From: Candidatus Woesebacteria bacterium
GTDB taxonomy: Bacteria; Patescibacteriota; Microgenomatia; UBA8517
Reading direction: 5' to 3'
NCBI GenBank assembly: GCA_013426185.1
Contig: CP058602.1
Span: forward strand, 724,582 to 788,581
DNA: 64,000 nucleotides
Below the pieces are notes generated by a model that saw only the letters and a list, made by a program, of their open reading frames with translations, was not told the DNA's origin and did not search any database. The position numbers and the translations under genes are program-made. The stretch's first letter is position 1, and every line of letters starts with the position of its first letter. This document shows positions 1,929-63,720 of the stretch, in pieces.

Positions 1929-4469
1929 ATGACTGAGAGAAAAACTAAAAGAAATCTTAATAAGAGGGCTAAAGTTTTGTCAGATGCCAAAATGGAAAAT
2001 GGAAAGATACTTCTTGAGAGTCTTTCCGCTCCTTCTTATGAAGAGATTATGAAGGAGATAGAAGCTAAGATTGGTAAAAGGCCAAAGTTACCTCGGGATT
2101 TGCCTAAGGGGGAATGGGGTGAGCAAGCAATAAAGGTGTTGGAAGAGCGATATCTTGTTAAAAATGAAGAAATGGAGGTTATTGAAACTCCTGAAGAGAT
2201 GCTTTGGAGAGTGGCTTGGGAAATAGCTTCAGCTGAAGCAAGGTGGGGTAAAAATAGAAAAGGAGTTTTGGATCAGGCAGAAGAATTTTATCAACTGATG
2301 GCTTCGAGAAAGTTTTTGCCTAATTCACCTACTTTGATGAATGCAGGTACAGGTAATATGCTTCAGTATTCTGCTTGTTTTGTCTTGCCAGTTGAAGATT
2401 CGATGGAAGGAATTTTTGATGCTCTTAAATATCAGGCTTTAATTCACAAAACCGGTGGTGGTACGGGTTTTTCTTTTAGTCGCCTTAGGCCAAAAGGATT
2501 TGTAGTTAAAACTTCAAAAGGTATTGCTTCAGGACCTGTGTCTTTTATGAGGATTTTTGATGCTGCTACAAATGAGGTCAAACAAGGTGGCAAGAGGCGA
2601 GGCGCTAATATGGGTATTTTGCGAGTTGATCATCCTGATATTAAGGAATTTATTCATTGCAAGGAAGATGGGGGTATTACCAACTTTAACATTTCGGTTG
2701 CAATTACCAATAAATTTATGGAAGCTTTTGAAAAGGGGGAAGACTATGATTTGATCGATCCTAAAAGTGGGGAAAAGGTTGGCAAACTTAATGCCCGCGA
2801 GGTTTTTGATGAGATTGCCGATGCCGCTTGGCGAACAGGCGACCCAGGGTTAATTTTTATAGACAAAATTAACGAAAGTAAGGCCAATCCTGTTCCTCCT
2901 CTTGGCCCAATTGAGTCTACCAACCCATGCGGTGAGCAGCCACTTTATCCTTTTGATGCCTGTAACTTGGGCAGTATCTTTTTGGGCTACTTTGTCAAAG
3001 ACAAAAAAATTGAATGGGATGAACTTGAAAAAGTTGTTAAGATGGCTGTTCGTTTTTTGGATAATGTCATTGAGGTTAATCCTTATCCTTTGGAACAGAT
3101 TAGGAAAATGGTCTTTAATACACGCAGAATTGGCTTGGGAGTTGGTGGTTGGGCCGATATGCTTATTAAACTTGGTATTCCTTACGATTCTGAGGAGGGT
3201 GTGCGTTTGGCAAAGGAGGTAATGAATTTTATAGAAACTAAGGCAGTTGAAGCATCAATTGATCTTGCTTCTGAAAGAGGTCCCTTTCCGCTTTGGTCTT
3301 TAAGTATTTACAAAGATGAAGAACCTAGGCGCAATTCTACTGTTACCACTATTGCTCCAACAGGAACAATTTCAATAATTGCAGGTGCTTCTTCTGGCAT
3401 TGAGCCACTTTTTGCTATTGCTTACCAACATATCGTCAAAGACAAACACCTTGACCGTCGCTTGTCGTTTATTAATCCGTTTTTTGAGGAAATGCTTAAG
3501 GAAAAAGGAATTTGGAGTCAGGAATTGGTTGATAGGGTAATTGAAAAGGGAATGGTAAGAGATATGGAGGAATTACCTGAAGATATTAAAAATGTTTTTG
3601 GCACTGCTCATGAAATAAACCCCGAGTGGCATATAAGGATGCAAGCCGCGTTTCAGGAGTCAACAGAAAATGCAGTTTCAAAGACTATTAATCTGCGGCA
3701 TGAGGCAACAGTTGAGGATGTTAAAAAGGCTTATCTTTTAGCTTGGAATTCAAATTGCCGAGGAATTACTGTATTTAGGGATGGTAGTAAAGATGCTCAA
3801 GTTTTAAATGTGGGTCTTGATAAAAAAGAGGAGGACAAAAAAGAAATTTGGGACGAGAAAGCAGCAATCATTGAAAGGCCGTTTGTAGCAAAAGGTGCTA
3901 CTTATAAATTGGCGACACCTGTAGGTACCGCTTTTGTAACGATTAACGAAGATGAAAATGGTCAGCCGCTTGAAGTTTTTATTAATGTAGGCAAAGCCGG
4001 GAGTGATCTTACAGCAGTAGCCGAAGCCTTGGGAAGAGTTATCTCAACTGCCTTGCGCTCACGGGGAAATACCTCTCCCAAAGACAGAGCTCTTGAAATA
4101 GCTCATCAGCTCTCAGGTATTGGAGGAAGAAGATCTGTTGGTTTTGGCCCATCAAAAATCCGCTCTCTTCCTGATGCGGTTGCTGCTGCTATCTCAATTC
4201 ATTTTGGCTTTAGAGTTAATGGATTTTTAAATCACGATGTTGAGTCTGATAACCATCATGTCAATGGGTTGGCAAATGGTGTCAAGAAGGAACAAGAATT
4301 GGTGCTTGGAAGTCTAGAGAAGAAAGCAGAATTAGAGTTTAAGCAACAGGCTTTGCTCCTTGAGGAAAAGGGGCCATTGGCTGATATTTGTCCTTCCTGT
4401 GGTTCAAATTCTTTTGTATATGAGGAAGGTTGCTCCAAGTGCTATGTTTGTGGCTATTCTGAATGCTGA
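1929..4469 (+). CDS. nrdJ: adenosylcobalamin-dependent (class II) ribonucleotide reductase
   Basis: NPCGEQPL active-site block, TNPCGE, C-terminal CxxC..CxxC zinc ribbon (CPSCGS...CSKCYVCG), 846 aa. Confidence 0.85.
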   Translation: MTERKTKRNLNKRAKVLSDAKMENGKILLESLSAPSYEEIMKEIEAKIGKRPKLPRDLPKGEWGEQAIKVLEERYLVKNEEMEVIETPEEMLWRVAWEIASAEARWGKNRKGVLDQAEEFYQLMASRKFLPNSPTLMNAGTGNMLQYSACFVLPVEDSMEGIFDALKYQALIHKTGGGTGFSFSRLRPKGFVVKTSKGIASGPVSFMRIFDAATNEVKQGGKRRGANMGILRVDHPDIKEFIHCKEDGGITNFNISVAITNKFMEAFEKGEDYDLIDPKSGEKVGKLNAREVFDEIADAAWRTGDPGLIFIDKINESKANPVPPLGPIESTNPCGEQPLYPFDACNLGSIFLGYFVKDKKIEWDELEKVVKMAVRFLDNVIEVNPYPLEQIRKMVFNTRRIGLGVGGWADMLIKLGIPYDSEEGVRLAKEVMNFIETKAVEASIDLASERGPFPLWSLSIYKDEEPRRNSTVTTIAPTGTISIIAGASSGIEPLFAIAYQHIVKDKHLDRRLSFINPFFEEMLKEKGIWSQELVDRVIEKGMVRDMEELPEDIKNVFGTAHEINPEWHIRMQAAFQESTENAVSKTINLRHEATVEDVKKAYLLAWNSNCRGITVFRDGSKDAQVLNVGLDKKEEDKKEIWDEKAAIIERPFVAKGATYKLATPVGTAFVTINEDENGQPLEVFINVGKAGSDLTAVAEALGRVISTALRSRGNTSPKDRALEIAHQLSGIGGRRSVGFGPSKIRSLPDAVAAAISIHFGFRVNGFLNHDVESDNHHVNGLANGVKKEQELVLGSLEKKAELEFKQQALLLEEKGPLADICPSCGSNSFVYEEGCSKCYVCGYSEC

Positions 4470-9419: not shown

Positions 9420-9705
9420 TTGCGGGGCTGGGGATCGAACCCAGTCTGGAAGATTATGCCTAAAGTTTTCTCCGATTTCTCGAGAGTGTCGGACTATGTC
9501 TTGCCCGTGAGATAAGAAATCTATCTCAAGGGCTTTGGCGTATAGTCTCTACGGATTTTACATTCATGTAAACCGAACGTAATCTTTCCTCGGCGTTGCC
9601 ATGATCAAATAGATTTTAGGTTTCGCCGATATAGCCAAATTTTTCCCCCATTAAATCGAGGGAAGCCCATTTTGAGCCTTCCGTGCAGCCGTACACTACC
9701 CCGCA
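9420..9705 (-). tRNA. tRNA(CAU) (elongator Met or Ile2/lysidine type) interrupted between U33 and C34 by a group I intron
   Basis: 5' exon TGCGGGGTAGTGTACGGCTGCACGGAAGGCT (9705-9675) and 3' exon CATAATCTTCCAGACTGGGTTCGATCCCCAGCCCCGCA (9458-9421) join to a 69-nt cloverleaf with loop CUCAUAA; acceptor TGCGGGG/CCCCGCA. Confidence 0.75.
9459..9674 (-). ncRNA. group I intron (IC3-like, Azoarcus tRNA-Ile intron-like core) inside tRNA(CAU)
   Basis: 5' exon ends in U, intron ends in G (..ACUUUAGG). An internal guide sequence (GGGCUUCC) pairs with the exon end (GGAAGGCU). Core blocks AUCGGCGAAACCUAA, AUGGCAACGCCGAG and CCGUAGAGACUAUACG resemble the Azoarcus/cyanobacterial tRNA introns as I recall them from memory. 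Confidence 0.7.
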
Positions 9706-9800
9706 TGTTAACTATAAAGAACATGCGCATTATACATGGAATTTGGTAGTTAAGCAACCCCCAATGCGTACCAGTATATATAGTATAATATAACTTAAGG

Positions 9801-11011: not shown

Positions 11012-12013
11012 ATGAAACGTGTTTTTTCAGGTTCAAGACCGACGGGGAAGCTTCATCTTGGTAATTACTTGGGTGGGGTTAAAGGTTATTTGGAGCTTGC
11101 TAGAAACCCACAATTTGAGACTATTTATATGGTGATGGATTTGCATGCTGTTACCACTCCTTTTGATAGAAATAGCTTGGCGCAAAATACAAAAGATGTG
11201 ATTTTGGATTACTTAGCCTCGGGCCTTGATCCTGAAAAATCAATAATTACTGTCCAATCGCTTGTTCCTGAGCACACTTATCTTGCTCACTTGATATCAT
11301 CCACAGTAACAGTGGCCCGTATGCTTCACTTGCCGACTTACAAAGAAAAAATAAAACAGTATCCAAAAGAAGCAACTATGGCTCTTTTGAATTACCCAGT
11401 TCTTATGGCGGCTGATATCTTAGCTTACAAGGCGGATCTAGTTCCAGTGGGAGTTGATCAAGAGCCACATCTTGAGGTAGCCCGTGAGATAGCAAGAAAA
11501 ATGAACGAGAAGTATGGCACTAATTTTCCTGAACCAAAAAGATTTGCAACCAAGGGTGAGTACATTCCTTCTTTGACAGGGGAGGGAAAGATGAGTAAAT
11601 CAGTTGAGGGTAGTTACATTAATTTAACTGATTCACTTGAAGAAATAAGGGCAAAATTGGCTCGAGTTCCAACTGATAGTGGTAGTGGTACCACTGTGCC
11701 TCAAGAAGGCGGAGTATTTACCCTTTTGCTTTTCTCTGGTCTTTTTCTTGGCGATGACGCTCAAAAAGAGCTTGAAGCACAATATACATCATCTGGTATT
11801 AGGTACAAAGAACTAAAAGATAGGCTGGCTAGCGCTATTTTTGAAGAATTAAAGCCGATTCAGGAAAGAAGAAAAGAGATAGAATCAAGAAAAGGCTATC
11901 TTGAAGATGTAATTTTGGATGGAGCAAAGAAGGCAAGAAAAATAGCCTCCCAGATATTGGAGGAGACAAGAGAAAAAATGGGATTTATAAGATTGGTAGA
12001 AAGTAGAACGTAG
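11012..12013 (+). CDS. trpS: tryptophan--tRNA ligase
   Basis: class I HIGH-like TGKLHLGNYLG at N-terminus and KMSKS motif. Confidence 0.9.
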   Translation: MKRVFSGSRPTGKLHLGNYLGGVKGYLELARNPQFETIYMVMDLHAVTTPFDRNSLAQNTKDVILDYLASGLDPEKSIITVQSLVPEHTYLAHLISSTVTVARMLHLPTYKEKIKQYPKEATMALLNYPVLMAADILAYKADLVPVGVDQEPHLEVAREIARKMNEKYGTNFPEPKRFATKGEYIPSLTGEGKMSKSVEGSYINLTDSLEEIRAKLARVPTDSGSGTTVPQEGGVFTLLLFSGLFLGDDAQKELEAQYTSSGIRYKELKDRLASAIFEELKPIQERRKEIESRKGYLEDVILDGAKKARKIASQILEETREKMGFIRLVESRT

Positions 12014-12255
12014 TAAGTATAAAGCAAATAAATAGTTAAAAGTTCAAAGTGCAAAGTTAAAAGTTGGAATTTACTATTCTGTAATTTGAAAAATTGGATA
12101 ATTGTAGAATTGTTTAGAATTTAGGATTTGGACCTTGTAATTTGGAGCTTGGAATTTGTTTGTAATTTGTATATTGGAATTTGTAATTTTATTCTATAAT
12201 CCAAAATCTATAATCTAATCATAAAGTTTTGAATTTTAAGTTTTGAGTTATTTTT
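12014..12255. repeat. mosaic AT-rich modular intergenic repeat region (modules shared with 17419-17782, 55064-55542 etc.)
   Basis: contains gtagaacgtagtaagta..., ttgtaatttggagcttggaatttgtttgtaatttg, tctataatccaaaatctataatcta modules; about 230 nt is the reverse complement of 55100-55330. Confidence 0.8.
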
Positions 12256-12603
12256 ATGTTTATTTCTTTTGACCAATTTTCTCAGGTTGATATAAGAATT
12301 GGAACGGTGGTTAAGGCCGAGGTGCCTGAGTGGAGCCATTGGGTTATGAGACTTGAGGTTGATTTTGGAGAAGAAATTGGCAAAAAGACTTGTTTTTCAG
12401 GCATTATGAAGTTTTTTAAACCGGAAGAGCTTGTTGGTAGACAATTTCCTTTTGTTATTAACCTTGAACCTAAAAGAATAGGACCTGATAAAGAGTTGAG
12501 TGAATGTATGATGATAATGGCGGTTCCTTCAGAAGATGAAGACACTGCTCCTGTTCTTTTTTCTCTTTCAGAAAAAGTTGAAAACGGAACGAGAGTAAGG
12601 TGA
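12256..12603 (+). CDS. tRNA-binding domain protein (CsaA/Trbp111/EMAP-like)
   Basis: QVDIRIGTVVKAEVPE... OB-fold tRNA-binding signature. Confidence 0.65.
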   Translation: MFISFDQFSQVDIRIGTVVKAEVPEWSHWVMRLEVDFGEEIGKKTCFSGIMKFFKPEELVGRQFPFVINLEPKRIGPDKELSECMMIMAVPSEDEDTAPVLFSLSEKVENGTRVR

Positions 12604-13123
12604 TAGCTGGGACTAGGGAGCTAGTCGGAGTTGGTCGAAGTTAGTCCTCGCTTACAGCGAGGCTGGTCAAAGCTGGTCGGAAGACAGTATCTAGTATCTT
12701 GTATTATGTATTATGGGAACAATGCATTTTCCTGCATAATACTTAATTCATAATACTAAATTCAGTGTTCCTAATTTGTTTGTGATTTGAAAAATTGGAA
12801 AATTGTAATTTGTTTAGGATTTAGAATTTGGAATTTGTATATTGTAATTTGTTTGTAATTTGGAACTTGGAATTTGGAATTTTGATTTTTACTCTTTGTT
12901 CTCTGTTCTAACCTGGTAGGTAAAAGGCAAGAGGTAAAAGAATTCGGATTTCAGCTATCAGCTGTCAGCTGTGGGAGTTAGTTGTTATCTTAATTCATAA
13001 ATCCTAAATCATAAATCAAAATTCTGTAATCTAATTTTTGACTTTTGAGTTTTAAGTTTTGAGTTATACTTTTGACTTTTAATTTTTGAGTTAGCTCGTT
13101 TTTAAGTGTATAATTAGCTGCTT
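12604..13123. repeat. mosaic modular intergenic repeat region including a 110-nt inverted-repeat module (12676-12790)
   Basis: modules tcggaagacagtatctagtat..gtattatgtattatg[GGAACAATGCATTTTCCTG]cataatac..., gaattcggatttcagctatcagctgtcagctg, ggtaaaaggcaagaggtaaaag. Confidence 0.8.
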
Positions 13124-17418: not shown

Positions 17419-17782
17419 TCGGAAGCCAGTATTTAGTATTTTGTATTATGCAGAGAATACAGGTAGAAAGTAGAATGTAGTAAGTAGAAAGCAAATAAAT
17501 AGTTAAAAGTTCAAAGTGCAAAGTTAAAAGAATTCGGATTTCAGCTGTCAGCCGTCAGCTATCAGATTTGAGCGCTATCTAATTCATAAATCTTAAATCC
17601 TAAATCTAGATTCTATGACTTATTTGTAATTTGGAATTTGCCTGCCCGCAATCGCTAAAGCGATAGCTTTTGCAGGCGGGGAATTTGTAATTTTATTCTA
17701 TAATCCAAAATCTATAATCTAGTGTTTTGTGGTAAATTTCAGGTTAAGGAGGTAAAATAGGGGAAAATAAGCAAAACCTTAG
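17419..17782. repeat. mosaic modular intergenic repeat region (left flank of R-M island)
   Basis: modules gtagaaagtagaatgtagtaagtagaaagcaaataaatagttaaaagttcaaagtgcaaag, gaattcggatttcagctgtcagccgtcagc, ggaatttgcctgcccgcaat..gcaggcgggg (also inside 23S at about 56420-56465). Confidence 0.8.
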
Positions 17783-30234: not shown

Positions 30235-30504
30235 TAAATAGGCGAAGTTGGTCGGAAGGTTGTATTTATATCTTGTATTATGCAGGGAATACAAGTAGAA
30301 AGCAGAACGTAGTAAGTAGAAAGCAAAATTAATAAATAGTTAAAAGTTGTGTATTATCCTTTCTACTTTATACTTACTACTTTCTACTAATTTTAAGTTT
30401 TGACTTTTAAGTTTTAAGTTAGGTTGTACTTTGGATTTTGGGATTTGGAATTTTATTCTATAATCTATTTTCCCCTTATCTCTTTTCCCCAGATTTAGTA
30501 TAAT
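30235..30504. repeat. mosaic modular intergenic repeat region containing an inverted pair of the GTAGAAAG module
   Basis: caagtagaaagcagaacgtagtaagtagaaagc ... cctttctactttatacttactactttctac (reverse complement), tttggattttgggatttggaattttattctataatc. Confidence 0.8.
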
Positions 30505-35732: not shown

Positions 35733-36104
35733 GTGAGTATTTTGGCAGAAGCAAAAGAAAAAACAGGCACGGGGCTTAAAAAAGAAACTTCAGCAGCTCT
35801 TTCTTATGTTTTGGGTTTTATAACGGGAATTATCTTTTTGATTATTGAGAAAGATCCTTTCGTCCGCTTTCATGCAATGCAGTCGATTGTTGTTTCTTTG
35901 GCCTTTTTTGTCCTTTCTTGGATTTTAGGAATAATCAGCGTGCTTTTAGGGTTGACTGTATTCTTGGCTTGGGTAGGGCCGCTTTTGAGCGGAGTTTTGA
36001 TGATTGGCGGCTTTGTTCTCTGGCTACTTTTGATTTACAAAGCTTATCAAGGGGAAAAATGGCAAGTGCCTTATATTGGCAAATTTGTTGAGAGAATGGT
36101 CTAG
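35733..36104 (+). CDS. small membrane protein (DUF4870-like)
   Basis: ORF, 3 TM; weak family guess. Confidence 0.35.
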   Translation: MSILAEAKEKTGTGLKKETSAALSYVLGFITGIIFLIIEKDPFVRFHAMQSIVVSLAFFVLSWILGIISVLLGLTVFLAWVGPLLSGVLMIGGFVLWLLLIYKAYQGEKWQVPYIGKFVERMV

Positions 36105-36742
36105 TGATGAAAGAGGCCAAGCGGATGGTTGAAGAAATAAGGAGTTATTATGGTCTTGACTCTCCTTTAGTCTTTAAAGCGATGCTTAAAGTTCCCCGTG
36201 AGGAATTTGTTTTGCCTTCTTATCGCCATCTTGCCTACAGTGACTCAGCCTTGCCTATTGGGCATGGACAAACAATCTCGCAACCTTATACCGTAGCTTT
36301 TATGACTCATCTTGCCTTGGGTGGAAGATCTAAATCTCGCAATAAGGTTCTTGAAGTGGGAACAGGTAGCGGTTATCAAGCGGCGATTCTTTCCAAGCTT
36401 TTCAAAGAAGTTTATTCAATTGAAATTATAGGCGCTTTGGCAAAAGAGGCAAAAAAAAGAATAAAGAAACTTGGCTATAAAAATATTTTTATTAAAAAAG
36501 GCAATGGTAAATTTGGTTGGGAAGAGGCTGCTCCTTTTGATGCAATTTTGATAACAGCAGGCCTTGAAAATAAGATCCCCCAGCCTTTAAAAGATCAATT
36601 AAAAGTAGGGGGAAGGTTAGTCGTTCCTCTTGGAAAAGGAGAGGGTAAGAAGATGGTGAGACTCACTAAACTTAGGTCAGGTGAGTTTAGAAAAGAAAAG
36701 TTTGGTATTTTCTACTTTGTCCCCTTTATAAGAGAGGATTAG
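36104..36742 (+). CDS. pcm: protein-L-isoaspartate O-methyltransferase
   Basis: SAM motif VLEVGTGSGYQAAIL and Pcm-type flanks. Confidence 0.8.
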   Translation: MMKEAKRMVEEIRSYYGLDSPLVFKAMLKVPREEFVLPSYRHLAYSDSALPIGHGQTISQPYTVAFMTHLALGGRSKSRNKVLEVGTGSGYQAAILSKLFKEVYSIEIIGALAKEAKKRIKKLGYKNIFIKKGNGKFGWEEAAPFDAILITAGLENKIPQPLKDQLKVGGRLVVPLGKGEGKKMVRLTKLRSGEFRKEKFGIFYFVPFIRED

Positions 36743-36774
36743 AAGTTAAAGTTAGCTTGCGGTAAAATAGAGCT

Positions 36775-37281
36775 ATGAAGCTTATTGTTGGCTTAGGAAA
36801 TCCTGAGGAGAAATATAAAAACAACCGCCATAATGCTGGTTTTATTTTAGTTGATCATATTGCTTCTTTTTTAGGAGGGTCTTTTGAAAAAAACAAGCAG
36901 GTTGAAAGCTTGGTTCTAAAGTCAGGTGAGATTATTCTTGCCAAGCCTTTGACTTTTATGAATGATTCAGGAAGAGCAGTATTAAAGCTTGTAAATTTTT
37001 ACCGGGTGCATCTTGATTCTCTTTTTGTGGCCTATGATGATTTAGATATTAAGCTTGGAGAATATAAAGTTATCTTCGGCAAACCTCCAAAGACTCATAA
37101 TGGCATCTTATCTGTTATTAATAGGCTCAAAACTGGTGATTTTTGGCATATTAGGATTGGAGTTGAAAACAGAAGTGTTGAAAGAACTAGCGGTGAGAAG
37201 TATGTTTTGCAGGATTTCTCGGGTGATGAGAAGTTGGTTTTTGAGAATGTTGTGAAAGATATATCAAAAGATTTGGTTTAA
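36775..37281 (+). CDS. pth: peptidyl-tRNA hydrolase
   Basis: MKLIVGLGNPEEKYKNNRHNAGF N-terminus. Confidence 0.85.
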   Translation: MKLIVGLGNPEEKYKNNRHNAGFILVDHIASFLGGSFEKNKQVESLVLKSGEIILAKPLTFMNDSGRAVLKLVNFYRVHLDSLFVAYDDLDIKLGEYKVIFGKPPKTHNGILSVINRLKTGDFWHIRIGVENRSVERTSGEKYVLQDFSGDEKLVFENVVKDISKDLV

Positions 37282-37283
37282 TT

Positions 37284-37601
37284 ATGGTAAGACGAAATAA
37301 TGCTCCTCTTCAAAAGAGTTTCTTGAAAATTGGAGATATTCTTAAGGATTTCAAGCCTGATGAAGATAAATATATTTCTTATGAGTTTCAGAAATATGGT
37401 TATGATTTAGCAAGTGAGCTTGGGGATTTGAAAAATAAGTCTTTATACATCAAGCTTGCAAAAGAAGTGCCAAGAGGCTTGCTTGAGGAGGCGCGCAATT
37501 TTGTCAAAGATGCTTATAATGTCAAATCCAAGCCCAAGTTGTTTATGTGGAAGCTGAGCGAGCTTAAAAAGCGAGCGAAGCTTACACACAAGAGGAGTTG
37601 A
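37284..37601 (+). CDS. hypothetical protein whose 3' end runs into the first unit of a tandem repeat
   Basis: ORF only; C-terminus MWKLSELKKRAKLTHKRS is re-encoded by later repeat units. Confidence 0.3.
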   Translation: MVRRNNAPLQKSFLKIGDILKDFKPDEDKYISYEFQKYGYDLASELGDLKNKSLYIKLAKEVPRGLLEEARNFVKDAYNVKSKPKLFMWKLSELKKRAKLTHKRS

Positions 37602-37837
37602 GCGAAGCGAAAATCTCTTATGTGGAAGCTTTCTCGCCTGAGGGGCGAGAAAGCTGAAACACAAGAGGAGCGCAAGCTTTAGCTGAGAACTCTTATGTGG
37701 AAGCTTTCGCAGCTGAAAGCTGCGAAAGCAGACACGCAAGAGCCGCGCAGGCCCTAGGCCGAGAATCTTATGTGGAAGACAAGCGAGCTTAAAAAGCGAG
37801 CGAAGCTTACACACAAGAGGAGTTGAGCAAAGCTTAG
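37543..37837 (+). repeat. tandem array of four 75-nt units (TTATGTGGAAG - 12-bp hairpin - ACACAAGAGGAG - variable tail)
   Basis: Unit starts at 37543, 37618, 37693 and 37768, an exact 75-nt period. The hairpin cores differ between units but stay complementary (CTTTCTCGCC/GGCGAGAAAG versus CTTTCGCAGC/GCTGCGAAAG). Confidence 0.8.
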
Positions 37838-38218
37838 ATGCTACCCCTTAAAGGTAAGACCTTTAAATGGTATAGATATATGAATTCAAGAAGAGGTGTT
37901 TTTGCAGACATATATTCTTTGGTGGGTAATGTCCCAAAGGGTAGGGTAATAACTTACGGCCTTGTTGCTGATTTCTTGGAACAAAGTAAAGGACTTAAAG
38001 TTTCACCAAGGCTTGTGGGTTTTGCTTTGCACAAGAATAAAGATAATAAAAAAATCCCTTGTCATAGGGTGGTCTTTAAGGACGGTAGTTTGTCTTCAAA
38101 ATTTGCTTTTGGGGGAATTGAGGCTCAAAGACGGAAGTTGAAAGAAGAAGGAATTGCTTTCACTAGTGGTGGTCGGGTTAATCTTAAAAAATGCTTATGG
38201 AAAGACTTGAAATTCTAG
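37838..38218 (+). CDS. MGMT-family (O6-alkylguanine-DNA alkyltransferase C-terminal domain) protein; start may be the internal ATG at 37883
   Basis: active-site IPCHRVV and preceding TYG helix-turn-helix block. Confidence 0.7.
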   Translation: MLPLKGKTFKWYRYMNSRRGVFADIYSLVGNVPKGRVITYGLVADFLEQSKGLKVSPRLVGFALHKNKDNKKIPCHRVVFKDGSLSSKFAFGGIEAQRRKLKEEGIAFTSGGRVNLKKCLWKDLKF

Positions 38219-38475
38219 TCTCAGGCAGGGTTCAAGGTGTATTTTTTAGAGCCTTCACCGCCAAAAAGGCAAGAGAACTGAATCTTGTTGGTTGGGTGGC
38301 AAATCTTCCCGATGGAAGAGTAAAAATAGTTGCACAAGGGGAAAAAGATTCTCTTCAAGAGCTGCTTGAGTCGGTAAAATTAGGGCCACCTTTGGCAAAA
38401 GTTTCTCAAGTTGAATTTAAATGGAGCCGTAGATTTGAACCTTTTGATAATTTTTTTGTCCGTTACGATCTTTAA
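38191..38475 (+). CDS. acyP: acylphosphatase
   Basis: VSGRVQGVFFR and WV.N..DGRV signature. Confidence 0.8.
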   Translation: MLMERLEILVSGRVQGVFFRAFTAKKARELNLVGWVANLPDGRVKIVAQGEKDSLQELLESVKLGPPLAKVSQVEFKWSRRFEPFDNFFVRYDL

Positions 38476-38589
38476 GGTTAGGTTTGAGATTTACTGAGGC
38501 TATTCTTGGAGATAAAAAGGCCTCATAAAATTCTATCATAGCTTGAAGAAACTTCACTTTATCCTCCAAATTATGTATTATGAATTGAA

Positions 38590-39129
38590 GTGGTAAAACG
38601 TGAGATTCTAACACATTATCTTTTCTTTCTAGCATTTTTTATTTTCCTTGCGATTAGAAGGAATCTTTTTTCTTTTTCATCTTTTCCTTTCTGGTTGGGT
38701 GGCTTTATTGGCACTTTTTTAGTTGATTTGGATCATTTTCTTTACGCTTTTCTCCTTAATCCTCAAGATCTTGCTTCTCAAAGGGCAATTTATTACCTTA
38801 AGAAGAGGGAATATATAAGAGCCTTTCTAGTCCTTTGGGACGCAAAAGAAAATAGAACTCACCAAGTCTTTCATTCTTTTTCCTTTCAAATTATTTTTTT
38901 AATTTTGGCCTTTTGGGTTGTATCTTCATCAAGCAGTCTTTTTGCGATCGGCTTGGTTTTAGCTTTTTCTTTACATCTTTTTATTGATCAGTTCTCTGAT
39001 TTTCTTGTCTTGGGTAATCTTGATTTGTGGAAGAATGGATTTTTTAATTTGAGAATTGAGGAAAGAGGTCAACTTTTTTATTTTATTTTGAGTCTTTTAA
39101 TTTTTATCGCCTTTAGTTTTGTTTTTTGA
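38590..39129 (+). CDS. hypothetical polytopic membrane protein
   Basis: ORF, hydrophobic. Confidence 0.3.
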   Translation: MVKREILTHYLFFLAFFIFLAIRRNLFSFSSFPFWLGGFIGTFLVDLDHFLYAFLLNPQDLASQRAIYYLKKREYIRAFLVLWDAKENRTHQVFHSFSFQIIFLILAFWVVSSSSSLFAIGLVLAFSLHLFIDQFSDFLVLGNLDLWKNGFFNLRIEERGQLFYFILSLLIFIAFSFVF

Positions 39130-39168
39130 GGGTTGACTTATCTTTATAACTTGGTTTATATTCTTGGT

Positions 39169-39489
39169 ATGGCTTTGACAGATATTAATCATCAAGATTT
39201 TACAGAGAAAGTTTTAAAGTCAAAAACTCCTGTTTTGGTTGATTTTTGGGCTTCCTGGTGTGGTCCTTGTAGAATGGCAGAGCCTGTGCTTGAAGAGCTT
39301 TCGGATGATTATCAAGGCAAGGTTAGTTTTTTCAAAGTTAATGTGGATGAAAATCCTGATCTTGCTTCAAGTTATGGAGTGATGTCTATCCCCACAACAA
39401 TTCTTTTTCAGGATGGTAAAGAAGTTTCAAGACAAGTTGGTTTTGCAGGAAAAGAAGGCTTTGAAAATCTACTTAAAAAATTTGCTTAG
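39169..39489 (+). CDS. trxA: thioredoxin
   Basis: WCGPC active site; start set at [11 protein letters not shown] (longer ORF from 39133 possible). Confidence 0.85.
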
Positions 39490-39495
39490 AGAAAG

Positions 39496-39915
39496 GTGGT
39501 GATAATTATGGATCCAAATAACCCGACAAACGATCAACAGCAAATAGGTCAGATGTCATCTGATAATTCACAAGTATCAGCTGACAATTCCCAAATGCCA
39601 TCTGATAATTATCAAGCGCCGATGTCAAGCCAAGAACCAGATCAGGCAACGTCGGTTGCAGGTGTTGTAGCCGAGCCGCCAACTGCGCCCGTTACTCCTC
39701 AAGAGGAGGTTGCAGGAGGTGTTGCCCAAGTTTCTGAGGCTGAGCCGGGGCAACAAATGATGAGCGAGTCAGTCCAGGTGAGTCAAGAAGTTCCTGAACA
39801 AGTTAATCCTGTTGACGCGTCACAGTATCCTAATCCAACTGTCACAACAGCAGGAACAGCGCCTCTTGGTGGCGAGCCTAGTGAGGGAGACAATAATCCT
39901 CCTCAAGCTGCCTAA
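39496..39915 (+). CDS. low-complexity Q/P/S/E-rich acidic protein
   Basis: ORF only, compositionally biased. Confidence 0.3.
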   Translation: MVIIMDPNNPTNDQQQIGQMSSDNSQVSADNSQMPSDNYQAPMSSQEPDQATSVAGVVAEPPTAPVTPQEEVAGGVAQVSEAEPGQQMMSESVQVSQEVPEQVNPVDASQYPNPTVTTAGTAPLGGEPSEGDNNPPQAA

Positions 39916-42353: not shown

Positions 42354-42677
42354 CACATTAACTTAAAACTTAAAAGTCAAAAGTATAACTCAAAACTTAA
42401 AACTCAAAAGTCAAAAATTAGATTATAGATTTTGGATTAGAGATTAGAGAATAAAATTCCAAATCCCAAGCTCCAAATTACAAACAAATCACAGAATCTA
42501 GATTTAGGATTTAAGATTTATGAATTAAGATAGCAATCAACTCCGACAGCCGACGGCTGATAGCTGAAATCCGAATTCTTTTACCTTTTACCTCTTGCCT
42601 TTTACCTATTCTTGATACTTGATTCGTGATACTTGTATGTCTCGTTTGTGCTATCATAATATTGAGTTTTACAAAAC
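42354..42677. repeat. mosaic modular intergenic repeat region (reverse-complement modules)
   Basis: reverse complements of ttgagttttaagttttgag, tctataatct, ttggaatttg, gaattcggatttcagctatcagccgtcggctgtcgg, ggtaaaaggcaagaggtaaaag, and the cgtgatac/caagtatcaag module. Confidence 0.8.
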
Positions 42678-44519: not shown

Positions 44520-44693
44520 ATCGGTATCACGTATCACGAATCAAGTATCAAGAATAGGTAAAAGAGTAAAAGTTGAAAGCTAAAAGAGATCCAAGTAGAA
44601 AGTAGAACGTAGTAAGTAGAAAGCAAAATTCTATAATCTATAATCCAAAATCTATAATCTAATTTTTGACTTTTGAGTTTTAAATTAAATCTG
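44520..44693. repeat. modular intergenic repeat region
   Basis: tcacgtatcacgaatcaagtatcaagaataggtaaaagagtaaaag, caagtagaaagtagaacgtagtaagtagaaagcaaa, tctataatctataatccaaaatctataatc, tttgacttttgagttttaaa. Confidence 0.8.
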
Positions 44694-55063: not shown

Positions 55064-55542
55064 TTGGTGACATTTATTTTATGATAAAAAGGCTTGTTAA
55101 GCAAATGGAAGGATAACTTAAAACTTAAAAGTCAAAAGTCAAAAATTAGATTACAGAATACAGATTAGAGAATAAAGAATAAAATTACAAATTCCAAGCT
55201 CCAAATTACAATATACAAACAATATACAAATTCTAAATTCTAATTTCTAAATTCTAAACAATTCTACAATTATCCAATTTTTCAAATCATAAATTAACTC
55301 AAAACTTAAAAATCAAAATTCAAAAGTTGGGATTAGAACAAAGAGAGTAGAAAGTAGGATGTAGTAAGTAGAAAGCAAAAATACAAAATTAAAGACCACA
55401 CCCCTCCTTTCTACTTTCTGCTTACTACTTTCTACTAACTCCCGAATGACTTTGACTAACCTCGCCGTAGGCGAGGACTAACTCTGACTAACTCCGCCAT
55501 AGGCGGAGACCAACTTTGACTAACTTTAACTAAAACCCGCTC
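55064..55542. repeat. mosaic modular repeat region (largest in window) in the 16S-23S gap
   Basis: about 230 nt reverse-complementary to 12040-12250; inverted pair of the GTAGAAAG module (55338-55440); gactaacctcgccgtaggcgaggactaac / gactaactccgccataggcggagacc hairpin pair. Confidence 0.85.
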
Positions 55543-55823: not shown

Positions 55824-55920
55824 CAGGCTCTTTGAAAAGTGAAGAGAATTTTGTCCTATCGCTTTCGTCAAATTAATTTTGGCGGGTAAAGCGAAAGAGA
55901 AAATGGGAAGGCCGTAAAAA

Positions 55921-60055
<4,135 letters not shown>

Positions 60056-60155
60056 TTTTTCCTTTCCTATTTTTCTCTTTCGCTTTGCCAATGGCAAAAT
60101 TCTTTTCACTTTCTCAAGCTTTAGCTTGAGAGTTTAAATTTTAGGTTTGGGCCTT

Positions 60156-60328: not shown

Positions 60329-61432
60329 GTGCCAGAAAAGAAAGAAAAAACAAAATCTTCAAAAGAATTGACGATGGCAGATCTTTTGGCTTCAAAGAAG
60401 GTCTTTTTTGGCTTGAAAGTGGGCCAGAAGGTTAAGGGCAAGGTTGTTGAAAAAAGTCCCAAAGCCCTGCTTCTTGATATTGGCGGCAAATCTTTGGGAA
60501 TGGTGACGGGTAAAGCTTTAAGTGAAGCAAAGGATTTTGCTCGCCAGCTTGAAGTTGGGGATGAGGTTGAAGGTTCGGTTCTGATTCCCGAAACTCCTGA
60601 TGGCTATACCATAATTTCTTTAAGAGATTCAGCAAAAACTTTTGTTTGGAATAAAATTGAGAAAATTTATCGCGAGGCAAAAGAGCTTTCTTTGGAAGTC
60701 AAAAATTCAGGCCAATCAGGGGTGACTGTTGAGATTTTGGGCTTAACTGGCTTTGTGCCAATGTCTCATTTGACAAAAGAAACTCTTAAAGATGTAAATA
60801 ATCTTTCCGGCAAAATGCTTCGCCTGAAGATCATTGATTTTGATAAATCTTCAAATCGCTTGATTTTGTCAGAAAAAGCAGTGGTTGAGGCAAAGGAGAT
60901 TGAAGATCAAAAGGAAGCTTTGGCATCTCTTAAAGAAGGCGAAGTTTATGAAGGCGAAGTGACAACAGTTACTGATTTTGGCGCTTTTGTTAAGTTGCCT
61001 GCAAAACTTAAGGGTAAGAAGGTTGAAGTTGAAGGCTTGGTTCATGTTTCTGAAGTAGCTTGGGGTAAATCTATGAAACCATCTGAAGTATTAAAAGAAG
61101 GGGACAAGGTGAAAGTTAAAGTCTTGGAGATTAAAGATGGCAGAATGGCCCTTTCTATTAAGCAAGCAGAGGGTGATCCTTGGGAGAAGGTTGAAAAGAA
61201 ATATAAGCCTGAGATGAAGCTTGAAGGGGAAGTGGTTAAGATATCTGATTTTGGCGCTTTTATTGCTCTTGAGCCTGGAATTGAAGGACTTTTGCATATT
61301 ACCAAGATTCCTCCAACAACAAGACTAAAAGTAGGCGATAAGATTGATGTCTATATTGATGAAATAGACACCAAAGAAAGAAGAATTAGCCTGGGTTTGG
61401 TTCTAACCACAAAGCCTGTAGGATACAAGTAA
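60329..61432 (+). CDS. rpsA: 30S ribosomal protein S1 (four S1 domains); true start may be MADLL at 60374
   Basis: repeated S1-domain blocks GFVPMSHL, GLVHVSEVAW, GLLHITKI with downstream basic stretches. Confidence 0.75.
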   Translation: MPEKKEKTKSSKELTMADLLASKKVFFGLKVGQKVKGKVVEKSPKALLLDIGGKSLGMVTGKALSEAKDFARQLEVGDEVEGSVLIPETPDGYTIISLRDSAKTFVWNKIEKIYREAKELSLEVKNSGQSGVTVEILGLTGFVPMSHLTKETLKDVNNLSGKMLRLKIIDFDKSSNRLILSEKAVVEAKEIEDQKEALASLKEGEVYEGEVTTVTDFGAFVKLPAKLKGKKVEVEGLVHVSEVAWGKSMKPSEVLKEGDKVKVKVLEIKDGRMALSIKQAEGDPWEKVEKKYKPEMKLEGEVVKISDFGAFIALEPGIEGLLHITKIPPTTRLKVGDKIDVYIDEIDTKERRISLGLVLTTKPVGYK

Positions 61433-61900
61433 TAGATAAAAGGCAAGAGGTAAAAGGTAAAAGAAACCCAAGTAGAAAGTAGTAAGTAGTAAGTAGAAAG
61501 CAAAAGATTGTATCTAGTATTTTGTATTATGTATTATGGGAACAATGCATTTTTCTGCATAATACATAATTCATAATACTAAGTTCAGAATTTTTCCCTT
61601 TGTTCTTTTTTCTAACCTAGTAGGTAAAAGGCGAGAGACTTCAGCTATCGGACATCGGCTATCGGATATCAGGCATCAGATGTTAGCTGTCGGATGTCGG
61701 AATTTGGTCGGAGCCATTATCAAGTATCACGAAGCAAGAATCAAGTATTAAGAATAGTTAAAAGAATTCGGGTCTCAGCTATCAGCTGTCAGCTGTCGAC
61801 TTTTGAAATTTGTAATCGTGGTTGTTGGTTTTCGGATCTTTAGATTGGTAATTATTGAATTATAATTTCTAAATTTCCAATTTTTAATCCTATATTTTAT
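61433..61900. repeat. mosaic modular intergenic repeat region including a full copy of the 110-nt inverted-repeat module (61505-61590)
   Basis: ggcaagaggtaaaaggtaaaag, caagtagaaagtagtaagtagtaagtagaaagcaaaag, tatctagtattttgtattatgtattatgGGAACAATGCATTTTTCTGcataatacataattcataatac, cttcagctatcggacatcggctatcggatatcaggcatcag, gaattcgggtctcagctatcagctgtcagctg. Confidence 0.85.
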
Positions 61901-63465: not shown

Positions 63466-63720
63466 CATTTTAGTCTACAATTTTAGCTTCGTTGGTTAGT
63501 TATCAGATATCAGGTTTCAGTCCAAGTCAGTTGAAGCTAGCCGGAAGACAGTATCTAGTATTTTGCATTATGTATTATGGGAACAATGCATTTTTCTGCA
63601 TAATACATAATACATAATACTAAATTCAATGTTCCTAATCTGTGTTTGCATTTTGTTTATTGGTGCCGACCTTGCCACCCTACCTTTAAAGGGTTGGTGT
63701 TTATTCTCTAATCTCTAATT
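63466..63720. repeat. modular intergenic repeat region with third full copy of the 110-nt inverted-repeat module (63540-63660)
   Basis: ccggaagacagtatctagtattttgcattatgtattatgGGAACAATGCATTTTTCTGcataatacataatacataatactaaattcaatgttcctaatctgtg, nearly identical to 12676-12790. Confidence 0.85.

Follow-up and report, generated by a model that had tools for sequence, protein, structure and literature searches.

A gene-specific hairpin cassette, present as a four-unit tandem array, at the 3′ terminus of a gene linked to pth in Candidatus Woesebacteria

Introduction

What is a tandem array of four 75-nt units doing at the junction between two protein-coding genes of a Candidatus Woesebacteria bacterium? 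The array occupies positions 37543-37837 of a 64,000-nt stretch of contig CP058602.1 (GenBank assembly GCA_013426185.1, positions 724,582 to 788,581 of the forward strand), which is the whole of the DNA analysed and is called the window; its units are named A, B, C and D. It starts within the end of a small gene that we call X and is followed by an MGMT/Ogt-like gene. A first-pass annotation of the sequence had described the units, proposed that compensatory changes in their hairpins reflect a selected structure, and raised integron attC sites and repetitive extragenic palindromes or bacterial interspersed mosaic elements (REP/BIME) as models. To place the units, 80 species-level related loci were fetched via the X protein with 8-kb flanks, so that 81 sources including the window were searched; L-numbers are labels of related loci or assemblies. 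The comparison shows that each unit is a copy of a conserved hairpin cassette that belongs to the 3′ end of X. As a tentative reading, which we favour without calling it probable, the array would be a local four-copy tandem amplification of a gene-specific mRNA structure that relays ribosomes by termination-reinitiation.

Very few regulatory RNAs have been described in bacteria of the candidate phyla radiation, and the cassette is a well-supported, one-gene-specific structured element outside Rfam; a literature search found no earlier description of it. This short hairpin cassette rewrites the C-terminus of a conserved protein, may keep ribosomes flowing onward, and varies in copy number between strains; if the relay is true, the proportions of two gene products would be set by the number of units.

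The array is made of four structured units

Within the window, exact matches to TTATGTGGAAG occur only at 37543, 37618, 37693 and 37768, precisely where the four units had been placed, with a period of 75; six or more near-matches to the same sequence were seen in none of 100 shuffles, and Tandem Repeats Finder returned a 75-nt period across 37615-37778. The array was 100% identical, base for base, in three other independent public assemblies (L001-L003; one NCBI, two JGI), and is therefore no assembly artefact.

Unit A (37543..37617, + strand; "A-type") forms the last 19 codons of X (F-M-W-K...), as first noted for the open reading frame (ORF) 37284-37601. Its main hairpin, H1, lies at about 37552-37582 and contains two tandem G.A mismatches; the linker ACACACAAGAGGAG supplies the codons T-H-K-R-S, the stop UGA (37599-37601) is followed by the mini-hairpin GCGAAGC (37602-37608), CTC stands at the unit end, and the next AUG comes 18 nt past the stop. 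The 3′ module of this unit, AAGAGGAGTTGAGCGAAGCGAAAATCTCTTAT, was also found in another species (L012). Unit B (37618..37692, + strand; "B-type") has an H1 of 12-13 bp (37627-37655), the linker AACACAAGAGGAGCGCA, a mini-hairpin P3 (37675-37684) whose loop and 3′ arm carry the stop UAG (37680-37682), and the unit end GAGAACTC; it is the top covariance-model match in the window (93.6 bits, E = 2.6e-16). Unit C (37693..37767, + strand), also B-type, has H1 at 37703-37729, with an inner stem that differs from that of unit B by compensatory changes, and the P3 hairpin GGCC-CUA-GGCC (37750-37760) with the stop UAG at 37755-37757. Unit D (37768..37837, + strand), a near copy of unit A, has H1 at about 37777-37807, the stop UGA at 37824-37826 and the mini-hairpin AGC-AAA-GCU at 37826-37834; the ATG at 37838, 11 nt past the stop, is in frame with the MGMT-like gene.

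Folding bore out the proposal that each unit forms a long hairpin. Unit B folded at -35 kcal/mol (z = -5.1) and unit C at -36 kcal/mol (z = -4.2), and in the fold of the whole array (z = -8.0) every unit makes its own hairpin of about 50 nt. Some details of the first description needed correction. The loop of B has 5 nt (or 3 if a closing G-U pair forms), and the outermost A of the C stem is unpaired; the inner stems of B and C do differ by compensatory changes, at four of six positions and not at every one. Units A and D are indeed near-identical with a different core, and their stem is imperfect, with two tandem G.A/A.G mismatches.

Compensatory changes point to a conserved RNA structure

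We aligned 34 non-identical cassettes from different species. Each begins with UUAUGUGG (the F-M-W codons), followed by H1, a linker, P3, GAGAAC or GAAAAU, and CUCUU-AUGUGG, the second M-W copy. Much of this is coding sequence of the host gene: the TTATGTGGAAG shared by all units corresponds to the F-M-W-K codons, and the hairpin 5′ arm and the TTATGTGG motif are X's own invariant codons. H1 comprises 10-13 bp, in which the next five or six codons (K-L-S/A-x-L-K) are paired to their own reverse complement. The linker reads (G)ACACACAAGAGGAG and then CGCA in B-type or UUGA in A-type cassettes, and P3 is a mini-hairpin of 2-4 bp that occurs as GGC/GCC, AGC/GCU, GAC/GUC, AAC/GUU or GC-GAA-GC. A further segment, CCACACAAGAG, has two complements: the upstream UUAUGUGG, which gives helix P1, and the downstream CUCUUAUGUGG, a fuller match that gives helix P2. 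Since CCACACAAGAG can pair with the M-W codons of either the upstream or the downstream copy, every AUG would be inside a stem, and in the array fold each AUG lies within the P1/P2 stem. In the M-W-R cases (K replaced by R, with CGAC, AUGUGGCGAC), the 3′ arm is GUCGCCACA, and the native tail is enclosed in full (L012, L031, L132).

Double-sided changes were found at nine of the ten H1 pairs and two of the three P3 pairs. The alignment contains 63 double-sided cells compared with 20.7±3.7 in shuffles, none of 500 of which reached this number, and controls with slid partners gave at most 14. In addition, 48 cells with tandem G.A mismatches favour the coding strand as the folded strand, and the folded molecule is likely RNA. 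Together, the compensatory pairs and the conserved unpaired nucleotides argue that features of a conserved, structured cis-acting RNA are present, and the view that the differences between units B and C mark a selected structure now has a much broader footing.

Further conserved modules follow the A-type cassette downstream of X in L210 (1815-1935), and also in L007 and L031. One of them is the hairpin CUCUUACUUCG-AAC-GAAGUGAGAAG, followed by GCUUUGCUUAUGUGGAAA and a short hairpin, and in several genomes this short hairpin holds the Shine-Dalgarno sequence of the downstream gene. The region after X contains a family of modular hairpins rather than one motif.

Selection appears to act on nucleotides rather than peptide

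The four ATG-initiated frames translate as first reported, which raises the question of whether their products matter. Among the mini-ORF peptides there is no conservation beyond M-W-K-L..L, and they are therefore unlikely to act as peptides. The conserved motif ACACA(CA)AGAGGAG is read in two different frames, as T-H-K-R-S in A-type and as T-Q-E-E in B-type cassettes, and the conserved GAGAACUCUUAUGUGG and some of the compensatory partners in P3 are located past the stop codon. Between unbiased species pairs, identity is 45% at the third codon positions of X, a saturated level, and 48% in inner H1; the 3′ module reaches a mean identity of 73%. The pair L042 and L072 is an extreme case, with a 3′ module that is 97% identical, an X that is 64% identical and an H1 that is 33% identical. 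These observations suggest that selection is on the nucleotides and not on the peptide. Long-term constraint is the simpler reading, because a recent transfer of the whole element would not leave a diverged H1 beside a conserved module.

The cassette is found only at the 3′ end of gene X

The doubt that the units might have no other copies or homologs was dispelled by the comparison, since they have homologs in many genomes. Strong covariance-model matches (E < 1e-5) came from 13 of the 81 sources and weaker ones from three more, and all matches with E < 1 in the 680 kb searched lay directly 3′ of the F-M-W-K codons of X on the coding strand. Among species-level relatives, about 16-20% of X genes carry the cassette. 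Neither the 64-kb window nor the 8-kb flanks from the 80 related genomes yielded a copy away from X, and in 700 kb of related DNA the motifs CACACAAGAGGAG and GAGAACTCTTATG were absent everywhere except just 3′ of X on the + strand. A metagenome scan with a pattern that excluded the gene-encoded part (ACACAAGAGGAG, 15-35 nt, CTCTTAT) returned 113 stretches, 36 of which lay directly 3′ of an X gene and had the whole cassette in common. The other 85 matches from the metagenome and viral scans together were alike only in the pattern, at about the number expected by chance; all eight matches in viral contigs were unrelated sequence. The cassette therefore appears, as far as the contigs show, to be a gene-specific and strand-specific element of a single locus, and within the same scope dispersal of the REP/BIME type, or of the type of MITEs (miniature transposable elements with inverted repeats), is ruled out.

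The probability that any known repeat or RNA family accounts for the units, be it the attC array of an integron, REP/BIME or type III antitoxin RNA repeats, is close to nil. Some likenesses exist: the units are tandem imperfect palindromes within the size range of attC sites (57-141 nt) and fold as single-strand hairpins with bulged bases, and the array, like type III antitoxin repeats, precedes a gene. Unlike attC sites, the units abut directly, with no gene cassettes between them and no R''/R' core sites, attI or integrase (IntI), and the attC comparison made at the outset has to be given up. The unit ends CTCTTATGTGG and CCACA(CA)AGAG hold no RYYYAAC/GTTRRRY, and there is no recombinase within 3 kb of the array, where the genes encode a P-type ATPase, a Na/Ca exchanger, a MamF-like protein, PCMT, Pth, the MGMT-like protein, acylphosphatase, thioredoxin and thioredoxin reductase. 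The REP/BIME comparison fails as well. Cassette hairpins resemble REPs in being stable, in lying at a gene 3′ end, sometimes in tandem, and in their possible protection of the message from exonucleases; REPs, however, form hundreds of dispersed, extragenic copies in both orientations, whereas the cassette overlaps the coding end of one gene and has conserved sequence outside its stems. REP/BIME, MITEs and, in the strict sense, Rickettsia palindromic elements (RPEs) were all rejected on the finding that the element is undispersed, with every match at the X 3′ end on the + strand. For a type III toxin-antitoxin system (ToxI-like), the downstream gene is of the wrong kind: it encodes no ToxN/AbiQ-type toxin and is not constant, being MGMT-like (PF01035) in the window and cvpA or another gene in other genomes. 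At gathering thresholds Rfam gave no match in the array region; at permissive thresholds the best matches were to microRNA and Flavo-1 models (20-24 bits versus thresholds of 42-67 bits), the best E in the region being 0.09 for a microRNA precursor model.

Four other identities were tried and set aside. An intrinsic terminator was rejected because 36000-39500 holds no terminator-like site on the + strand and H1 is followed by GAAACACAAGAG. Hammerhead-like cores, looked for by eye in the conserved linkers (CUGAC..., GAGAA), do not fit, and none of the ribozyme models scores. A dif/Xer site, suggested by the resemblance of TTATGTGGAAG to the XerD arm TTATGTTAAAT, was rejected: the motif has no partner arm at 6-nt spacing and corresponds to the F-M-W-K codons. 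In a template/variable-repeat pair of a diversity-generating retroelement, finally, the differences between A and D would be adenine-specific, which they are not, and no reverse transcriptase is present.

The cassette has an insertion-like layout

In most genomes one cassette stands between the F-M-W-K of X and a second ATGTGGAA, which opens a native-like, lysine-rich tail that starts at the duplicated AUG (MWKLKQLKNESKK and MWKLTQLRKEAKEKQK are examples). In 10-12 of 21 loci the displaced tail has a stop that overlaps the start of the following gene, as native tails in cassette-free genomes do in 26 of 65. As the overlap is no less frequent than in native tails, the displaced tails are undecayed despite the divergence of the cassette.

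A layout of this kind invites the explanation that the cassette is a palindromic mini-insertion, selfish or neutral, which reached the ATGTGG(AA) of X by targeting or recombination and is tolerated because it brings its own stop, a new AUG and a replacement for the tail; arrays would then grow by slippage, and the conserved sequence would serve mobility. We regard this as unlikely, though it deserves serious weight. In its favour are the order of X-FMWK, cassette, duplicated ATGTGGAA and intact native-like tail, seen in more than 20 lineages, and the patchy presence of the cassette, which is often missing from the nearest relatives of an X gene that has it. Moreover, in L054, L090, L097 and L191 the cassette is a fully in-frame, translated internal insertion, as are the RPEs, the closest published precedent for the translation of palindromes inside genes (PMC10969869). 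The cassette shares with them its palindromic nature, its position inside a coding region, its translation with the host protein and its patchiness among relatives. RPEs, in contrast, are about 150 bp long and belong to multi-copy families spread over dozens of unrelated genes, while the cassette measures 50-90 nt, is confined in each genome to a single site in one and the same gene, with a constant orientation, and builds tandem arrays. What speaks against a mobile element is this restriction to one site and orientation, together with the lack of further copies across about 700 kb and among the metagenome matches; there is also no transposase or recombinase within 3 kb. The duplication does not look like a clean target duplication either. 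ATGTGG(AA) is duplicated, and its left "repeat" consists of X's invariant codons; the third positions of the flanking F and K codons often differ between the copies. A 3′ module that is up to 97% identical beside an H1 that is 33% identical likewise argues for long-term selection and not for recent transfer.

The intact displaced tails would also be explained if the cassette were an intervening sequence that is skipped, either by ribosomes hopping between AUG-UGG-AAR copies 50-90 nt apart or by excision from the RNA, guided by CCACACAAGAG, which is able to pair with both junctions. Skipping would keep the native lysine-rich tail and its coupling to the next gene, and would therefore account for the preservation of tails, unbroken and in register, across more than 20 lineages in spite of the divergence of the elements. 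Translational bypassing elements are known from phage T4 gene 60 and from the "byp" elements of Magnusiomyces mitochondria. The cassette is like them in being a short structured insert between AUG-UGG-AAR copies that could serve for take-off and landing, with a hairpin right past the first copy and an intact native frame downstream. It is unlike them in that no stop or rare codon stands right past the take-off site and that the insert has its own conserved in-frame stop. The matched AUG-UGG-AAR is found in most cassettes and not in all, the second copy being AUGGGG or having a changed K codon in several genomes. We consider skipping a long shot; if true, the cassette would be the first such bypass element or mini-intron in a bacterial chromosome.

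Chained reading frames suggest a relay of ribosomes

The stops of the cassettes are as regular as their stems. The frame is kept through H1, with H1 length steps of 3 nt (86 or 89 nt), and ends at a UAG that spans the loop and 3′ arm of P3 in 20 of the 34 cassettes; other placements are a UGA directly past P3 and the A-type UGA just ahead of it. For 26 of the 34 cassettes in the alignment, the distance from this stop to the AUG that follows is 8-18 nt (8-14 nt in most of the B-type), and in the short units of L032 it is 2 nt; in the window the gaps are 18, 12, 12 and 11 nt in unit order. The mini-ORFs pointed out at first thus fit a consistent pattern, with stops 2-18 nt before the next AUG. 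The period is a different matter: although 75 is a multiple of 3, periods of 50, 59, 74, 76 and 80 nt elsewhere contradict this as a rule. Five cassettes have no stop ahead of the next AUG, and in the four of these with in-frame periods (72, 75, 78 nt) X reads through towards its old stop. At the far end, the hairpin of the last unit, CUCCUGC-GAA-GCAGGAG, includes the Shine-Dalgarno sequence of the downstream gene in several genomes; the native tail of X and the next gene's start overlap (ATGA).

In translational-coupling hairpins, such as those of the MS2 coat-replicase junction and of ribosomal-protein operons, the downstream start is masked by a stem formed with the upstream coding strand. 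The AUGs of the cassette likewise lie in stems whose partners are inside the preceding frame, and the stops come shortly before the next AUG, so that the spacing of stop and AUG and the pairing of the AUG match the geometry of coupling. The cassette differs from coupling hairpins in being discrete and conserved, in duplicating the M-W codons and replacing the tail, and in occurring in tandem and in one gene family, and its coupling is only predicted. On this model, a ribosome that ends one frame would halt 2-18 nt before the next AUG, melt the stem that masks it and reinitiate. Translation would be passed from X via the mini-ORFs to the downstream gene (ogt or cvpA), and the amount that arrives there would depend on how many units there are. 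A further role of the hairpins may be to shield the X message at its 3′ end.

Several observations weigh against such a relay or against its details. We infer reinitiation and stem melting from geometry alone, and the chain of stops and starts is in part an automatic outcome of duplicating an "AUG ... stop" segment. The array of L087 (period 76) has its stop 37 nt ahead of the next AUG, and the short L032 units have no Shine-Dalgarno-like GGAG. P1 and P2 are almost invariant across cassettes, so that covariation cannot tell one from the other, the M-W-R cases excepted. H1 shows no G-U enrichment (6 G-U versus 16 A.C), and the folded molecule may be single-stranded DNA of the same strand. The cassette is also dispensable, since only a minority of X genes have it and the nearest X relatives of carriers often lack it, and this patchy spread is compatible with a parasitic origin too.

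That a small, basic protein should have a stable hairpin immediately behind the codons of its final invariant residues calls to mind another kind of control. In arfA and brfA, expression is controlled through non-stop mRNA, and H1 might similarly be cut by RNase III, or act as a terminator, to give a non-stop X mRNA, so that truncated X would build up only if trans-translation fails; the lysine-rich, pth-linked X would then be a factor in ribosome rescue or translation quality. The near-universal linkage of X to pth and the lack of conservation in the tail beyond the hairpin agree with this, and yet we think it very unlikely. Such a hairpin ought to be conserved across the family, whereas most X genes are without a tail hairpin (-2 to -8 kcal/mol in most element-free loci). 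There is no U-tract or terminator-like site on the + strand; the frame is kept through H1 to a conserved stop, which would be pointless were the mRNA cut upstream; and X has no detectable similarity to known rescue factors.

Array size and the tail of X vary among relatives

The order of units is A-B-C-D in the window and in L001-L003, A-[B/C hybrid]-D in L145 and L171, B-C'-D' in L092, and [B/C]-D up to the contig end in L005. The B/C hybrid unit has single-nucleotide differences of its own and recurs in three independent assemblies, and is therefore taken as real; it is the product of a 75-nt deletion by crossover between B and C. L087 and L036 contain identical tandem units, the result of recent duplication. 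These arrangements indicate that the array changes in size by unequal recombination or slippage. As it grows or shrinks, the first unit changes, and with it the tail of X: the 120 closest homologs include 32 A-type tails, 11 B-type tails and seven that read into a following unit.

Copy numbers at the X locus in public assemblies call for caution, as the array is probably hard for assemblers. In the single unit of L004, a Logan assembly, the 5′ part of A runs into the 3′ part of D over 46 shared bases; this unit may be an assembly collapse and is not taken as evidence. In L036, a GTDB representative genome, a run of N inside the tandem array (2985-3095) may be an assembly gap or a masked stretch.

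The variation in tails raises the further alternative that the units are silent alternative 3′ ends, and that recombination between TTATGTGGAAG repeats swaps THKRS and DTQEE tails at the DNA level in the manner of a contingency locus, where selection would favour the variation itself. Relatives do express different tails, with A first in the window, L145 and L171, and B or B/C first in L092 and L005, and both types are real C-termini, as the counts among the closest homologs attest. We nevertheless judge tail switching quite unlikely. Direct repeats yield irreversible deletions, most genomes have a single cassette, and the tail past L..L is poorly conserved and dictated by the nucleotides of the hairpin, with one motif read in two frames; the covarying P3 and the conservation beyond the stop would be left unexplained. 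Amplification of a structure that relays ribosomes stays our preferred, if tentative, account.

Gene X and its neighbours

Gene X (37284..37601, + strand) encodes an all-helical protein of 105 aa, for which the AlphaFold (AF2) model has five helices at a predicted local distance difference test score (pLDDT) of 78. It has 2,102 homologs, in Woesebacteria and Microgenomates, of which all the named ones belong to Candidatus Woesebacteria or Patescibacteria. Their core is highly conserved and closes with the invariant L-F-M-W-K-L-x-x-L; the tail beyond this motif is variable, and gene callers mis-size the protein, with lengths of 89 to 136 aa among the homologs listed. No similarity was found in Pfam, NCBIfam or PDB sequences, or among PDB and BFVD folds with Foldseek.

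Directly upstream in the window lies pth, for peptidyl-tRNA hydrolase (36775..37281, + strand; PF01195, E = 1.4e-46), a conserved neighbour of X. A Pth match was present within the 8-kb locus in 79 of the 80 related loci, and directly upstream of X on the same strand in at least 52. As a ubiquitous neighbour of pth in Woesebacteria, X may be translation-related, and it merits study. One lineage breaks the otherwise tight linkage: in L207-L210, relatives that carry P0005, a DUF433/DUF5615 pair (a putative toxin-antitoxin module; 566-1139) and an unrelated minus-strand gene of 104 aa stand between pth and X.

The gene directly downstream of X is cvpA in 35 loci and MGMT-like in 15. In the window, PF01035 (the MGMT DNA-binding domain; E = 2.6e-19) was found in the downstream ORF (37838..38218, + strand; containing PCHRV), in agreement with its first description as an MGMT-like gene. 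A further hairpin, CCCCTTAAAGG-TAAGA-CCTTTAAATGG (37845..37871, + strand), is predicted in the array fold between the array and an ATG at 37880; it lies inside the annotated 5′ end of this ORF and has compensatory differences in the strains L092, L145 and L171. The real start of the gene may be this ATG, because homologs start MNFF... or MKK..F.

Other features of the window

Eight or more intergenic zones of the window consist of successive blocks of 7-nt tandem repeats with three to five copies each (11996-13093, 17428-17721, 30293-30453, 42359-42635, 44524-44661, 55115-55436, 61429-61797 and 63558-63719). The heptamers, for example GTAGAAA, TAAAAGT, TCAGCTG, CATAATA, TCTATAA, ATTTGGA and AAGTAGA, recur across loci in both orientations, and several zones flank tRNA genes and the rRNA operon. 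They look like a dispersed repeat family of its own. The 23S rRNA match (55916-60062) spans 4,147 nt compared with a model of 2,925 nt, and the gene therefore contains insertions of about 1.2 kb, which could be introns or intervening sequences. A group I intron match lies at 9469-9726 on the minus strand, with 60 bits versus a gathering threshold of 50.

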